11,242 nt of DNA from a virus (IMGVR_UViG_2693429549_000013), one strand, 5' to 3'. Positions 4,201-8,337 are shown, numbered from the stretch's first letter. Notes: a model not told the origin generated them from the sequence alone. Translations and numbers: made by a program.

Positions 4201-4410
4201 CACAATTCAGGCGGTTGACTGTTGTCTGGTTTGCGGGGAGTTTGTTAAAAGAAACTGGCATGGTGAATCCCCCTGTGCGGAGGGGCAATCAGCGAGTAGG
4301 TATATGGGATAATCGCGGATTCAGGTGCTGGTACTGAATTCACCGGGAGGCACCCGGCACCATGCAATGGCACATAGCGCCACTCTCCAGCCCCTCTCCG
4401 GAGGGGCTGT
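4201..4410 (+). ncRNA. structured module copy 1 (candidate small RNA): conserved hairpins plus intrinsic terminator
   Basis: CACAATTCAG..TTGACT.., hairpin CCCCT-gtgcgg-AGGGG, hairpin CCGGG-aggca-CCCGG, terminal hairpin AGCCCCTC-tccg-GAGGGGCT followed by a T-rich tail. About 97% identical to copy 2 by eye. Internal small ORFs are not conserved between copies. Confidence 0.4.
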
Positions 4411-4443
4411 TTATATTGATTTTGTCAGATGTGAGTAAACTCC

Positions 4444-4779
4444 TTATGGACTTTGTTGTTTTAGTCCATAAGGACATATTTGCAGAGTGCAACGGTTATT
4501 AAAGCATTCATTCAATACGTTATCTGTATTTGTAGGGCATTCCTGGCTATTTTTGATTGAATTCCAGAATGTTTTATTGAATGGTACTACGTTGTAAATG
4601 GTTACAGGTAGCACTTTGTTATTGAGCATGATGCCTGTGTGAGTCAGTGTAAATATACTTTCAGGAGGTAAGAAAGCATCCGATTGATACCAGATTATTA
4701 ATTTTATTTTACTCCATATGACTGAAAAAGATATTCCGCATGATGGCTGGATAACTGTATCAATCACAATCCACTTCAT
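4444..4779 (-). CDS. hypothetical protein (111 aa) in AT-rich cargo, opposite to late transcription
   Basis: Open frame with a GGAA ribosome-binding-like site 5-6 nt before the ATG at 4779. Its 3' end runs through a perfect 12-bp hairpin (4441-4474). No recognised homology. Confidence 0.3.
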
Positions 4780-5039
4780 TTAGTTTCCTTGTTTATGCCT
4801 TGCTGGTGATGTTCTGAAAAGTATAAATGATATTTTTGAATGTAAACCATAGAGCAGAATTATTTTTCTGATGTTGTTTATTGTTTATTTAAATGCAGGG
4901 TGGTTTATATCTCGTCTTGTAGTTTATCCATGCATATCTGCTTGATAATCAGGTTTTTATTTAAGGTATGGTTTTGTGTTTTTTCTGTATTACATGTCAG
5001 GTATTTTAAAGAATTATTTTTCAGATGGTGGAAAGAACC

Positions 5040-5166
5040 ATGGCATTTAAACACTATGATGTTGTCAGGGCGGCGCCGCCGTCAGATCTTGCGGAAAAGC
5101 TGACACATAAACTGAAAGAGGGCTGGCAGCCGTTTGGTAGTCCGGTGGCCATAACCCCTTATACCC
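5040..5166 (+). pseudogene. 5' fragment (42 codons) of a nanS-p-like esterase gene, truncated by IS600
   Basis: Encodes MAFKHYDVVRAAPPSDLAEKLTHKLKEGWQPFGSPVAITPYTL, about 90% nucleotide-identical to the start of the intact gene at 8565. The reading frame runs into the IS600 end at 5167. Confidence 0.75.
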
Positions 5167-5209
5167 TGAGGTGTACTGGCAATAGCGGACACTACCATTT
5201 GTTCTTTTT

Positions 5210-6028
5210 TTAAGCAGCCATCTGATGATATTTTTCCCTGAAGGCTGCCGGGGAGATATTCCCCAGACGAGAGTGACGACGCTGACGATTGTAGAAAATC
5301 TCAATGTATTCCCGTATTACTGAGATGGCTTCATCCCGGTTATTAAAACGATAGTGGCTCAGGCTCTCATTTTTCAGCGTTCCCCAGAAGCTTTCCATCG
5401 GAGCGTTGTCGTAACAGTTACCTTTACGCGACATTGATGTTTTCAGACCAGACTGCTCCTGTATGACCCGGTAATCGTATGCGCAGTACTGTGAACCTCG
5501 ATCAGAGTGGTGGATTAGCCCGGCAGGTGGGCGCTGGCTCCTGAGCGCCATAAACAGGGCTTTACCTGTCAGCTCTTTTGTCATGCGCTCTCCCATGGCG
5601 TAGCCGACAATTTCGCACGTATAAACATCTTTGATGCCAGCGAGGTACAACCATCCCTCCTGTGTGGCAACATACGTCAGGTCCGCCACCCAGACCTGAT
5701 TTGGTGCTGTAGGAGCGAACGTCTGGTTCAGCAGATTTGGCGCAACTGGCAGATTGTGGTTCGAGTTCGTAGTCGCTCTGAACTTGCGTTTCTGCTTACA
5801 GCGTAGCCTTAGCTCCTTACGAAGACGTGCCAGTCGGTCACGACCAACGATGATGCCATTCTCTGCCAGCTCCGTCTGGAGCCGCCGGGTTCCATATGTT
5901 TCGCGAGTGCGGATATGTGCCACCTTAATCTCCAGTTTTAGCCGCTCATCACTTTGTTTTCTGTCTGAGGGTTCATGCTGTACCCAGTTGTAATAACCGC
6001 TCCTGGATACACCAAATACCTGACACAT
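5210..6028 (-). CDS. IS600 OrfB (DDE transposase catalytic domain; expressed as OrfAB fusion by -1 frameshift near 6108-6116)
   Basis: 272-aa ORF with IS3-family integrase-core features. The frame is open upstream of the first ATG into the OrfA overlap. Confidence 0.9.
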   Translation of the reverse strand: MCQVFGVSRSGYYNWVQHEPSDRKQSDERLKLEIKVAHIRTRETYGTRRLQTELAENGIIVGRDRLARLRKELRLRCKQKRKFRATTNSNHNLPVAPNLLNQTFAPTAPNQVWVADLTYVATQEGWLYLAGIKDVYTCEIVGYAMGERMTKELTGKALFMALRSQRPPAGLIHHSDRGSQYCAYDYRVIQEQSGLKTSMSRKGNCYDNAPMESFWGTLKNESLSHYRFNNRDEAISVIREYIEIFYNRQRRHSRLGNISPAAFREKYHQMAA

Positions 6029-6063
6029 CGCTTCAATGGGAAATTGTTGTCGCCATTGTTCGA

Positions 6064-6366
6064 TTAACGCGTATTTTTCAGCGACTCCTGTGCAAAATAC
6101 GCTGTTGCTTTTTTTAATATATCTCGCTCAAGGCGAGCTTCATTTAACGCCTTACGCAGTTGCAGAATTTCAGATTCCAGTTCAGCCACCGTGCGGGAAC
6201 CAGGAGTACCGAGCCCTTTTCTGGCGGCGGTAACCCATTGTCCTAAAGTGCCTTCAGGAAGAGATAATCGGGAAGCGCCTTCACTGATCGAAAGTTGATT
6301 TTCAAGAACCGTTCTGACAGCTTCGGCTTTGAACTCTTTAGAGTAACGTTGGGTTTTTCTGCTCAT
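6064..6366 (-). CDS. IS600 OrfA (helix-turn-helix transposase N-terminal protein)
   Basis: 100-aa ORF typical of IS3-family OrfA, with a leucine-zipper-like C-terminus. Confidence 0.9.
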   Translation of the reverse strand: MSRKTQRYSKEFKAEAVRTVLENQLSISEGASRLSLPEGTLGQWVTAARKGLGTPGSRTVAELESEILQLRKALNEARLERDILKKATAYFAQESLKNTR

Positions 6367-6434
6367 TATTAGCTCCTTCTGATGCCATTCTATTTCAGGA
6401 AGGAGTGTCCGTTAAACTCAGGCTACCTCAAAAA

Positions 6435-7299
6435 GCAGTTCTGGCGGGTGCTGAAACCTGCCGGAAGTCTTTACCTGTTCTGTGGTCATCGCCTGGCATC
6501 TGATATCGAAATCATGATGCGTGAACGCTTCAGTGTGCTGAACCATATTATCTGGGCGAAGCCGTCCGGACGCTGGAACGGATGCAACAAGGAAAGCCTG
6601 CGGGCGTATTTCCCCGCCACAGAGCGCATTCTGTTCGCGGAACATTATCAGGGGCCGTATCGTCCGAAAGATGCCGGGTATGCGGCGAAGGGCAGTGCAC
6701 TGAAACAGCATGTGATGGCCCCGCTGATTTCTTACTTTCGTGATGCGCGAGCTGCCCTGGGGATAACGGCAAAACAGATTGCAGATGCCACAGGAAAGAA
6801 AAACATGGTGTCGCACTGGTTCAGTGCCGGTCAGTGGCAGTTGCCGAATGAAAGCGATTATCTGAAATTACAGGCGCTGTTTGCCCGGGTGGCAGAAGAG
6901 AAGCATCGGCGTGGTGAACTGGAAAAGCTCCACCACCAGCTGGTGGATACGTATACCTCACTGAACCGGCAGTATGCGGAGCTGCTGAGTGAATATAAAC
7001 ATCTGCGGCGGTATTTTGGCGTGACGGTGCAGGTGCCGTATACCGATGTGTGGACGCATAAACCGGTGCAGTTCTATCCCGGGAAACATCCGTGCGAAAA
7101 ACCGGCAGAAATGCTGCAGCAGATAATCAGCGCTAGCAGTCGTCCGGGTGACCTGATTGCAGATTTTTTCATGGGGTTGGGTTCGACAGTGAAAGCGGCA
7201 CTGGCGCTCGGGCGTCGTGCAATTGGCGTTGAGCTGGAGACTGAACGTTTTGAGCAGACGGTTCGGGAAGTACAGGATTTAGTCAGCCAGAACGGATGA
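6435..7299 (+). pseudogene. 5'-truncated second copy of the DNA methyltransferase (lacks codons 1-64 including the DPPY motif)
   Basis: Identical to 2378-3242 of the intact gene. The track ORF 6382-7299 gains a start codon and 18 foreign codons from the IS600 end, giving a possible IS-methyltransferase hybrid ORF. Confidence 0.85.
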
Positions 7300-7339
7300 T
7301 ATTGAAGAATTAATTACGCGTCGTTATTATGCGGCTCCC

Positions 7340-7415: not shown

Positions 7416-7422
7416 TCACATA

Positions 7423-7499
7423 CCGCCATTAGCTCATCAGGAAAGAGCGCCAGCCTTCGAAGCTGGCTGCGCGGGGTTCAAGTCCCCGATGGCGGTCCA
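7423..7499 (+). tRNA. argN: tRNA-Arg (anticodon TCG), second copy
   Basis: Identical to 3366-3442. Confidence 0.8.
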
Positions 7500-7512
7500 T
7501 TATCTGCATCAT

Positions 7513-7589
7513 GCGTTGTTAGCTCAGCCGGACAGAGCAATTGCCTTCTAAGCAATCGGTCACTGGTTCGAATCCAGTACAACGCGCCA
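7513..7589 (+). tRNA. argO: tRNA-Arg (anticodon TCT), second copy; acceptor stem fully Watson-Crick (ACAACGC)
   Basis: Same as 3456-3532 except A at 7582, which converts the G-U pair to A-U. Confidence 0.85.
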
Positions 7590-7603
7590 CACTTATTTTC
7601 CCT

Positions 7604-7629
7604 GGCTCGCTTTTGCGGGCCTTTTTTTT
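7604..7629 (+). terminator. rho-independent terminator after the tRNA cluster
   Basis: Stem GGCTCGC / GCGGGCC (one G-U pair), TTTT loop, followed by eight T. Confidence 0.6.
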
Positions 7630-7637
7630 AAATGTCT

Positions 7638-7850
7638 CACAATTCAGACGGTTGACAGTTGTCTGTTTTGCGGGGAGTTTGTTAAAAGAAACTGGCATGG
7701 TGAATCCCCCTGTGCGGAGGGGCAATCAGCGAGTAGGTATATGGGATAATCGCGGATTCAGGTGCTGGTACTGAATTCACCGGGAGGCACCCGGCATCAT
7801 GCAATGGCACATAGCGCCACTCTCCAGCCCTCTCCGGAGGGGCTTTTCTG
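7638..7850 (+). ncRNA. structured module copy 2 (candidate small RNA)
   Basis: Same architecture as copy 1, with TTGACA at 7652-7657 and terminal hairpin at 7826-7844 followed by TTTTCTG. Confidence 0.4.
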
Positions 7851-8038
7851 TGCCGGATACATCACAGTTTCTGGAACCTTAGGTACTACAGTATCAGTCA
7901 GGGTGCTATATTTTCAGATGTGATGAAAGCCTGTCAGCAGGCAGGGCGTATCGGAAATGACCCAGTAGAGAAAACGTTGACTCAGATACCGGTGCTGAGT
8001 TACCGGGAAACCGGCATCACATGACCGCTATCCTTCCA

Positions 8039-8065
8039 GGCCCATCCGCTCCGGTGGGCCTTTTT
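8039..8065 (+). terminator. rho-independent terminator between module copies 2 and 3
   Basis: Stem GGCCCA / TGGGCC with a 10-nt loop, followed by TTTTT. Confidence 0.5.
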
Positions 8066-8104
8066 ACTGCAGAAAACAGGTTCCCCGTTAAATGCTATGT
8101 TGCT

Positions 8105-8337
8105 CACAATTCAGTAAGTTGACAGTTGCCTGTCAGACTGGGCATTTGTTAAAAAAATTTCGCATGGTGAATCCCCCTGAGCGGAGGGGCGACTGGTGAC
8201 GGTATAATCTCTGATTATCAAAACGAGAATGACGCGGGTTTAGTGGCACCGGGCTGAACTCACCGGGAGGCACCCGGCACCATGTGCATGATGATACAGA
8301 TACGCGGCTTTAGCCCCTCTCCGGAGGGGTTTTCTTG
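8105..8337 (+). ncRNA. structured module copy 3 (divergent; candidate small RNA)
   Basis: Retains CACAATTCAG, TTGACA (8119-8124), the CCCCT-gagcgg-AGGGG hairpin (a loop base differs, stem kept), the CCGGG-aggca-CCCGG hairpin and the terminal AGCCCCTC-tccg-GAGGGG hairpin plus T-run. Inter-hairpin spacers differ and include an insertion carrying TATAAT (8203-8208). Confidence 0.4.

Follow-up and report, generated by a model that had tools for sequence, protein, structure and literature searches.

Hairpin-rich modules in the late region of a lambdoid prophage belong to the STnc100 family of small RNAs

The viral sequence IMGVR_UViG_2693429549_000013, whose full 11,242 nucleotides we refer to as the window, is the late region of a lambdoid prophage, and between its antiterminator Q gene, pR'-like promoter and tRNAs on one side and a nanS-p esterase gene and lysis genes on the other it carries four copies of a hairpin-rich module that ends in a terminator. 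A preliminary description, made from the sequence alone, had recognized three of these (at 4201-4410, 7638-7850 and 8105-8337) and proposed them as a candidate family of non-coding prophage small RNAs. We find that the modules belong to a small-RNA family that is already known, STnc100, whose relatives include PasD and EcOnc27. The analysis confirms the observation and supports its main interpretation, and what we add (i.e., a fourth copy, a convergent partner, an assignment of promoter and start site, a pseudoknot, and a modular build) constitutes refinements and not a new kind of element.

Results

The four copies

Reading of the sequence places the three modules where they had been described, with their elements in the same order (a TTGAC(A/T) hexamer, two GC-rich hairpins and a terminal hairpin), and a repeat finder recovers them: Positions 4175-4393 and 7612-7830 are 94% identical, the first 88 nt of the module are present three times (95/100/82% identity), as is a 31-nt block, CCGGGAGGCACCCGG (97-100%), and the terminal hairpins emerge as a family from the repeat search. 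Global identity is 95.3% between copies 1 and 2, 69.7% between copies 1 and 3, and 71.0% between copies 2 and 3; copy 3 is indeed far more diverged (about 70%), and the loop-base change ascribed to it, from GTGCGG to GAGCGG in the loop of the P2 hairpin, is real. Two elements had been overlooked: One is a fourth copy (7918-8066), much more diverged; the other is an RNA gene that adjoins copy 3 on the minus strand and is convergent with it. The features, with predicted promoters, are as follows.

4186-4257 (+), copy 1 promoter region: AAWTKTWA-N6-TCACAATT box 4186-4207, TTGACT 4215-4220, weak -35 TTGTCT 4222-4227, extended -10 TG 4243-4244 and TAAAAG 4246-4251
4258-4417 (+), copy 1 RNA, about 157 nt: 5' domain 4258-4365, linker 4366-4387, terminator 4388-4409 and T-run; pseudoknot 4288-4293 with 4327-4332; Rfam RF02076 132.4 bits, own model 113 bits
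7623-7694 (+), copy 2 promoter region (offset from copy 1, 3437 nt): TCACAATT box 7623-7644, TTGACA 7652-7657, extended -10 TG 7680-7681 and TAAAAG 7683-7688
7695-7852 (+), copy 2 RNA, slightly degraded: Rfam 123.6 bits, own model 110 bits
7904-8066 (+), copy 4, diverged member: extended -10 TGcTATATT 7904-7912, 5' domain 7918-8022, linker 8023-8037, terminator 8038-8061 and T-run
8090-8161 (+), copy 3 promoter region: box 8090-8111, TTGACA 8119-8124, weak -35 TTGCCT 8126-8131, extended -10 TG 8147-8148 and TAAAAA 8150-8155
8162-8338 (+), copy 3 RNA, about 177 nt: 5' domain 8162-8285, linker 8286-8311, terminator 8312-8331 and T-run; Rfam 161 bits, own model 119 bits
8343-8516 (-), convergent small RNA, partner of copy 3: terminator 8371 to 8350, T-run to 8343

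A terminator scan picked up all three of the terminal hairpins that had been described, and terminator-like sites are over-represented in this part of the window (18 in 3500-8600, versus 5.2 +/- 2.1 in shuffles). Some details of the description need correction: In copy 2, one nucleotide of the terminator's 5' arm is deleted (AGCCC-TC; 7826-7844), the T-run is weak, and the P1 closing stem includes a G.U pair; the terminator of copy 3 ends in GGGGTT.

Family membership and occurrence

Scanning the window against Rfam 15 at curated thresholds (47 bits for RF02076) yielded full-length matches to STnc100 at 8133-8342 (161 bits), 4229-4418 (132.4 bits) and 7666-7855 (123.6 bits), each spanning model positions 1-206, and otherwise only six tRNAs. 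Copy 4 lies below threshold: A permissive scan matched 7894-8067 at 30.1 bits (E = 1.7e-4), and a covariance model that we made for the 5' domain out of 14 diverse homologues matched 7918-8022 at 35.3 bits (E = 9e-5). Because copies 1 to 3 all pass the STnc100 threshold and relatives are discrete Hfq-associated RNAs in enterohaemorrhagic and enteropathogenic Escherichia coli (EHEC and EPEC), the assignment to a non-coding prophage small-RNA family holds, although it is not a candidate family, being already catalogued as STnc100/PasD/EcOnc27. The suggestion that the modules might resemble AgvB, AsxR, Esr41 or StxS did not survive the Rfam search, which returned STnc100 instead; AsxR, AgvB and Esr41 (RF02703, RF02702 and RF02676) have no match at Rfam thresholds in the window, nor at E<=5 in 7590-8570, and the AsxR model recovers AsxR in phage 933W at 88 bits, i.e., the search works. 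Known ribozymes and riboswitches were rejected over the same two scopes, and a tRNA-like or tmRNA-like fold was rejected in that ARAGORN reports only the six tRNAs.

The copy-1 RNA sequence occurs in 2786 of 5426 complete E. coli genomes, in up to 11 places per genome, and the copy-4 type, which is unannotated, in 673; copy-3-like sequence is present in 353 of 50,697 phage records, mostly from Stx-converting phages. The STnc100 family, whose known members come from Stx phages and other lambdoid prophages, is annotated by Bakta. The matches listed for a 16-mer, CATGGTGAATCCYCCT, against genome contigs were chance occurrences in unrelated bacteria, and viral contigs were surveyed instead. Two pattern scans of these produced 235 loci, and our model returned 131 and 185 matches, which were aligned as 48 and 93 distinct sequences (141 in total). 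Arrays of three to five genes are common among the viral contigs, and the trio formed by copies 2, 4 and 3 recurs in at least eight of them.

A common fold

Read from 5' to 3', the family fold comprises P1, GAAU, P2, a strand of 6-9 nt, a variable insert of 20-45 nt, P3, P4 and the 3' strand of P1, past which lie a linker of 15-30 nt and the terminator. P1, which pairs GCAUGGUG with CACCAUGC, closes a 5' domain of 105-125 nt; P2 is CCCC/GGGG with an 8-nt loop, P3 has 8-9 bp, and P4 is CCGGG AGGCA CCCGG. The minimum-energy fold of copy 1 is exactly this fold (z = -3.1), that of copy 4 consists of P1/P2/P3/P4, a free linker and the terminator (z = -2.6), and in copy 2 the family fold lies within 0.4 kcal/mol of the minimum. 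For copy 3, a fold with the family helices reaches -63.0 kcal/mol versus -63.3 kcal/mol for the unconstrained minimum. Copy 4 differs from the other copies by paired changes in P1, P2, P3 and the pseudoknot alike.

That stems were retained while loop and spacer bases changed had been taken as a sign of selection on RNA structure, and compensatory changes among the aligned homologues bear this out. Standard pairs fill 95.8% of cells in the alignment of 48 sequences and 92.5% in that of 93, versus 35-50% when the partners are slid by 1-3 columns. Two-sided changes affect 5/8 and 7/8 of the P1 pairs in the two alignments (e.g., CUGGAACG/CGUUCCGG and UUGCUAUG/CAUAGCAA) and all 8/8 pairs of P3 in both; P2 (4 bp) and P4 are essentially invariant over the 141 distinct sequences. 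Fitting the alignments to our own model favours nested helices; a real covariation signal is indicated by the controls with slid partners and by how large the effect is. A role of the P2 loop as a CsrA decoy was considered and rejected, its GGA being replaced by GGC or GGT in most of the distant members.

The short open reading frames (ORFs) inside the modules are, as had been noted, not conserved. The ORF beginning with the ATG at +3 runs from 8 to 73 codons in 32 distinct forms with unrelated tails, by which a conserved peptide was rejected; these forms share only MVNPPxRRG, encoded by the conserved bases of P1 and P2, and changes there are non-synonymous (V/E/Q/K, R/W). A second ATG, in the 3' strand of P1, becomes GUG (with the U.G pair kept) or is lost in some members.

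A pseudoknot between the P2-flanking strand and the P3 loop

Whatever the sequence type, the bases that follow directly on P2 are complementary to those in the 3' part of the P3 loop. The pairs are AUCAGC/GCUGRU in copies 1 and 2, CUGGUG/CACCGG in copy 3 and UAUCGG/CCGGUG in copy 4; homologues have AAUGAUC/GAUCAUU (PasD), AAUGAC/GUCAUU, CUGGCU/AGCCAG, ACUGAU/AUCAGU, CUAGAC/GUCUAG, CCAGUU/AACUGG and others. Because MAFFT alignments place the pseudoknot strands of different types out of register, we applied a register-free test of duplex energies; our covariance model holds no information on this pairing. Over 8 types, cognate duplexes average -9.0 kcal/mol versus -4.0 kcal/mol for non-cognate ones, with 2 of 40,320 reassignments as good, and over 21 types, drawn from both data sets, the means are -7.5 and -3.6 kcal/mol, with none of 200,000 random reassignments as good. 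The P3 loop has 1-4 free nt, 6-7 paired nt and 0-1 free nt, a layout that resembles kissing-loop geometry, and from their sequences the P3 and pseudoknot helices could form either together or alternately. The pseudoknot is not shown in the STnc100 consensus line printed by cmscan, the word 'pseudoknot' does not occur in a 2026 preprint on PasD and STnc100 (bioRxiv 10.64898/2026.05.13.724894), and the other publications consulted do not describe it either. With more than 20 independent complementary pairs behind it, it may be of use to those working on these RNAs.

Promoter and start site

An extended -10 element, TGtTAAAAG/A, stands 6-7 nt before the first stem in copies 1-3, with a weak TTGTCT or TTGCCT 18 nt upstream of it, and the corresponding element of copy 4 is TGcTATATT. 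The preliminary description had found no convincing -10 for the TTGACA hexamer, and it is true that none lies 16-18 nt past that hexamer; however, an extended -10 (TGnTAAAAR) does exist, 25 nt from TTGACA, a distance at which the hexamer was rejected as its -35. A sigma-54 promoter was likewise rejected, there being, by eye, no TGGCAC-N5-TTGC. The promoter layout of copy 1 recurs in 47 distinct upstream contexts. In these, and then in 128 distinct upstream contexts, an A/T-rich, -10-like block occupies positions -13 to -6 relative to P1, with A at position -9 in 71%, and 104 of the 128 have a -10-like hexamer, matching at >=4/6 positions, whose end lies 3-12 nt upstream of P1.

For PasD2, the published start (NC_011601 741157) comes from RNA-seq coverage and is consistent with its northern size (PMC8550237); in the sequence it is the G of GCATGGTG, and the PasD promoter reads TTGACT-18 nt-TAAAAA-7 nt-G. 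From these relatives and from conservation, starts in the window are predicted at 4258, 7695, about 7918 and 8162, i.e., at the G of GCAUGG. In Salmonella LT2, RpoD is bound at STnc100 promoters (PMC10794520).

The box AAWTKTWA-N6-TCACAATT, present at 4186-4207, 7623-7644 and 8090-8111, has its centre 61.5 nt upstream of the predicted start. The right half, TCACA, is conserved and is a CRP half-site at the spacing of class I CRP promoters; the box of the 933W copy is TGTAA-N6-TCACA, and elsewhere the left half is mostly TTTTA or TGTTA. Judged by its letters, the box could be a site for CRP or another dimer, or merely A/T-rich upstream DNA.

A T<->C single-nucleotide polymorphism (SNP) at +90 and a T deletion at +103 past stx2B track with the risk of haemolytic uraemic syndrome (PMC12711010). 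Counting within about 2 nt, these map in 933W (our contig L123, about 2544-2558) to the extended -10, TGTTAAAAA, and to the TTT before the predicted start. If the promoter and start assignments are right, both changes would fall in the promoter of the Stx2-phage STnc100/EcOnc27 gene and not in its RNA.

Linkers and mosaic build

The window holds three different linkers, which are candidate seeds: AAUGGCACAUAGCGCCACUCUCC, common to copies 1 and 2; GUGCAUGAUGAUACAGAUACGCGGCUUU in copy 3; and GACCGCUAUCCUUCC in copy 4. Most of the linker is free of pairing where copies 1 and 4 were folded, and terminators with a U-tail follow the linkers. The same linker/terminator module is found behind different 5' domains, and vice versa: The linker of copy 1, AAUGGCACAUAGCGCCACUCUC, stands behind domains of the AUCAGC type and of the CUGGUG type alike, as do the copy-3 linker and the PasD1-type terminator. 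The invariant block formed by P4 and P1 would be the obvious crossover point, and a conserved scaffold with swappable seed and terminator modules explains how an E. coli genome can hold up to 11 copies with different seeds.

On two distant viral contigs (L341, 3115-3484, and L338, 7727-8083), the 5' domain is repeated head to tail at intervals of 11-32 nt, and P1 differs from copy to copy by fully compensatory changes.

Relation to known systems

The window copies share with STnc100 the whole-model match, the position in a prophage late region (as for the 933W copy) and the occurrence of several copies per genome (as in EDL933 and LT2), and depart from it in that copy 4 scores under threshold. 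In phage 933W, an STnc100 match of 208 bits lies 75 nt past stx2B and is followed by convergent AsxR and then nanS-p. This stx2B-adjoining copy overlaps the Hfq-bound EcOnc27/sRNA103 of Sakai and EDL933, and it is part of a 'convergent sRNA' dyad, an arrangement in the moron slot that Tree et al. described for at least eight Sakai prophages (PMC4104026, PMC7873438, PMC12711010). EcOnc27/sRNA103 has been seen by northern and by Hfq-CRAC (cross-linking and analysis of cDNA) (PMC4104026, PMC7873438), and in EDL933, 11 STnc100 copies have RNA-seq reads, one being confirmed by northern (PMC5331693). STnc100 is also found in outer-membrane vesicles of Shiga toxin-producing E. coli.

EcOnc27/sRNA103 is the Stx2-phage copy of STnc100. 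Like copy 3, it belongs to a convergent pair of RNAs in the moron slot, and the two have promoter type and pseudoknot type (CUGGUG/CACCRG) in common; its linker and terminator in 933W (AGUAUACAGAGAUUAGGCAUAUACC + GGCCUCUC...) differ from those of the window copies, and its convergent partner there is AsxR, whereas that in the window is an EcOnc08/21/42-like RNA.

PasD1 and PasD2 of EPEC E2348/69 start at GCAUGGUG and have P1, P2, the pseudoknot, P3, a linker and a terminator in common with the window copies. They share the place directly upstream of the SASA esterase gene, and a DUF3927 gene precedes them, as one precedes copy 1, but they are without P4, have a proper -35 (TTGACT), and carry the seed UGUGAG. 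PasD scores 38-41 bits with the STnc100 model and 41 bits with our own, and P1, P2, pseudoknot and P3 align (PasD2 being L001:258-429); PasD and STnc100 have been judged to be of common origin (Zhu, Shabalina and Storz, preprint 2026, bioRxiv 10.64898/2026.05.13.724894). These RNAs of 172-173 nt are confirmed by northern and have 21-25 partners by RIL-seq (ligation and sequencing of interacting RNAs; Pearl Mizrahi et al. 2021, PMC8550237). Their target motif, CUCACA, is complementary to the linker UGUGAG, and northern blots show Hfq-dependent PasD stability (PMC8550237).

AsxR/AgvB, Esr41 and StxS share with the modules the prophage late-region neighbourhood, a terminator cap and, probably, Hfq binding. 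AsxR, AgvB and Esr41 are, unlike the window modules, only 51-75 nt long, AsxR and AgvB lie on the opposite strand, and StxS is a pR'-tR' transcript, whose equivalent in the window would lie at about 1617-1715, outside the modules.

The convergent minus-strand RNA

The RNA at 8343-8516 (-) is 93% identical to an EPEC small RNA detected by RIL-seq, 'E2348C_1409.E2348C_1408.IGR' (NC_011601 1444978->1444797), whose EHEC homologues are EcOnc08/21/42. It holds the position of AsxR in 933W but belongs to a different sequence family, and it is present, unannotated in RefSeq, in 1067 of the 5426 E. coli genomes. Between the body of this RNA and the esterase gene, 8437-8462 forms a plus-strand hairpin with a T-run (CTGCGCAACTGCGCGG TCTTTTT). 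This hairpin lies antisense to the minus-strand RNA, and its conservation extends to 933W and EPEC.

Discussion

We consider it probable, at roughly 0.85, that the window contains four tandem or duplicated genes of the STnc100 family, each its own transcription unit, that make seed-bearing, Hfq-associated RNAs in the lysogen. A sigma-70 promoter relying on the extended -10 (TGnTAAAAR, or TGcTATATT in copy 4) would start each RNA at or next to the first base of P1, such that in the lysogen each of the four genes would give rise, from a promoter of its own, to an RNA of about 150-177 nt. The 5' domain would fold from the first nucleotide and probably stabilizes and insulates the RNA; the single-stranded linker, by analogy with PasD, would serve as the seed for pairing with mRNAs on Hfq; and the intrinsic terminator with its U-tail would end the transcript. 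Phages create variety in the family through recombination that joins 5' domains to different linker/terminator modules, and after induction, Q-modified polymerase should read through all four genes.

Several observations weigh against this explanation. The start site, Hfq binding and targets of the window copies are extrapolated from relatives, and the Rfam STnc100 model begins 29 nt upstream of the predicted start, leaving the predicted 5' end that far inside the model. The minimum-energy fold of copy 3, taken as a single sequence, differs from the family fold (z = -1.0), and neither P2 nor P4 ever covaries, so that comparison does not show their pairing. Because the PasD seed UGUGAG is in none of the four window linkers, the PasD targets are not transferable to the window copies; and in RNA-seq of an hfq mutant under activating conditions, PasD levels hardly changed (log2FC 0.55 and -0.18; PMC8550237). 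Some EDL933 copies of STnc100 carry ribosome footprints, with a coverage value of up to 3.2 (PMC5331693). Finally, the L341 and L338 arrays are without linker, terminator or promoter between copies, and such back-to-back 5' domains suggest that the domain has a role of its own.

Because P2 and P4 stay invariant amid change, and because these arrays carry no seed or terminator, the 5' domain may have its own function. Its invariant hairpins are GAAUCCCC...GGGGC and ACCGGGAGGCACCCGGCA, and P1, P3 and the pseudoknot covary freely around them. We regard it as a tentative, and on balance doubtful, extension that the domain is an autonomous functional RNA, i.e., a chassis for interchangeable seed/terminator modules and not merely a stabilizing cap; such a domain could act by binding or titration, on a protein of the host or the phage or on a ligand, or could process itself from late transcripts.

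If the modules acted instead mainly in cis, as a stack of terminators that in the lysogen keeps transcription from upstream tRNA, moron and sRNA promoters out of nanS-p and the lysis genes and is passed by Q-modified polymerase after induction, the RNA would be a by-product. This would suit the four plus-strand terminators found within 720 bp just upstream of nanS-p (with another at 8440-8455) and the position between morons and nanS-p/holin that is conserved in 933W, EPEC PP2 and the window. We think it unlikely, in that a terminator needs neither a covarying, pseudoknotted domain of 105-125 nt nor its own promoter, and that linkers diversify while the scaffold is kept; moreover, relatives form Hfq-dependent chimeras with mRNAs, and overexpression of sRNA103 changes fimZ/espA levels.

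Processing from Q-antiterminated late transcripts had also been proposed. In a wider form of this reading, the RNAs would be cut from longer transcripts, be they Q-antiterminated late RNA from pR' or read-through from tRNA or moron promoters, with the P1 end produced by a nuclease or by self-cleavage of the structured domain. The modules do lie inside the late operon, downstream of Q and pR'; their -35 elements match poorly, and TTGACA lies 7 nt out of place. In the L341 and L338 arrays, the spacing leaves no promoter room, so those domains must be co-transcribed, and the weak terminator of copy 2 means that copy 4, too, may be reached by read-through. However, an extended -10 or A/T-rich -10 element stands at a fixed spacing of 4-7 nt before P1 in most of the 128 contexts, PasD-type promoters have TTGACT-18-TAAAAA, and no Rfam ribozyme family matches the window at thresholds, nor 7590-8570 at E<=5. 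PasD and STnc100 RNAs are abundant in uninduced lysogens (PMC5331693, PMC8550237), and RpoD occupies the LT2 STnc100 promoters. With an extended -10 of their own present, the RNAs do not require processing from late transcripts, although read-through transcripts will also contain them, and we hold this origin to be quite improbable.

A small protein whose translation begins at the +3 ATG (MVNPP...) or at the one in the P1 3' strand, which GGGAGG precedes, is very improbable despite the GGAGG before that second ATG, the EDL933 footprints (PMC5331693) and RefSeq 'hypothetical protein' entries over some copies, because the +3 ORF varies from 8 to 73 codons with unrelated C-termini and only nine common residues, themselves subject to non-synonymous change, and because the second ATG becomes GTG or disappears where pairing is kept and is followed by a swappable module. 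None of these three alternatives accounts as well as independent STnc100-family genes do for the signs of a separate promoter, for the conserved domain and for the data on action in trans.

The family adjoins Shiga toxin genes in clinically important phages, and the likely promoter and start site, together with the modular build, could help those who study these RNAs.

Gene order and other features of the window

The modules occupy the moron slot, with Q, methylase and tRNAs upstream and the SASA esterase and P21 holin downstream, an order shared with 933W, as their placing in the late-operon slot had implied. The neighbouring features are listed below.

419-790: RusA
790-1611: antiterminator Q (PF03589)
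2184-3242: N6/N4 DNA methylase
3283-3532: tRNA Met/Arg/Arg
3643-3996 (+): moron with an IraM-like anti-adapter gene at the place of stx (named after 99.6% identical DNA in RefSeq; no Pfam match)
4032-4163 (+): DUF3927 gene, after the IraM-like moron
about 5040-5170: truncated start of a DUF1737/esterase gene, cut by the IS3-family element
about 5170-6420 (-): IS3-family element, with orfA 6067-6366 and orfB 5213-6028
6435-7589: second, partial methylase and the same three tRNAs
8565-10418: SASA sialate esterase (nanS-p), then P21-type holin

The 3' part of the methylase gene and the three tRNAs are exactly duplicated (2378-3540 and 6435-7597), and the IS3-family element lies between the truncated DUF1737/esterase start and the truncated second methylase copy. 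Two late regions are thereby joined by the element, and therefore the window has two sets of modules.

Just past Q, a pR'-like promoter (TTGATT-16-TAAATT) within 1617-1715 (+) and a terminator (CCCGC...GCGGG and a six-T run, 1694-1715) would together yield an RNA of about 65 nt. This unit holds the position of StxS in Stx phages and has no Rfam match in the window scan.

The 21 nt past the copy 1 terminator (4419-4439) are 81% identical to the -10 and start region of copy 4 (7908-7928); the DNA beyond them is A/T-rich and has a minus-strand ORF (4444-4779; no Pfam match). The segment may be what is left of a copy-4-like gene that an insertion replaced; alternatively, the resemblance may be due to chance.

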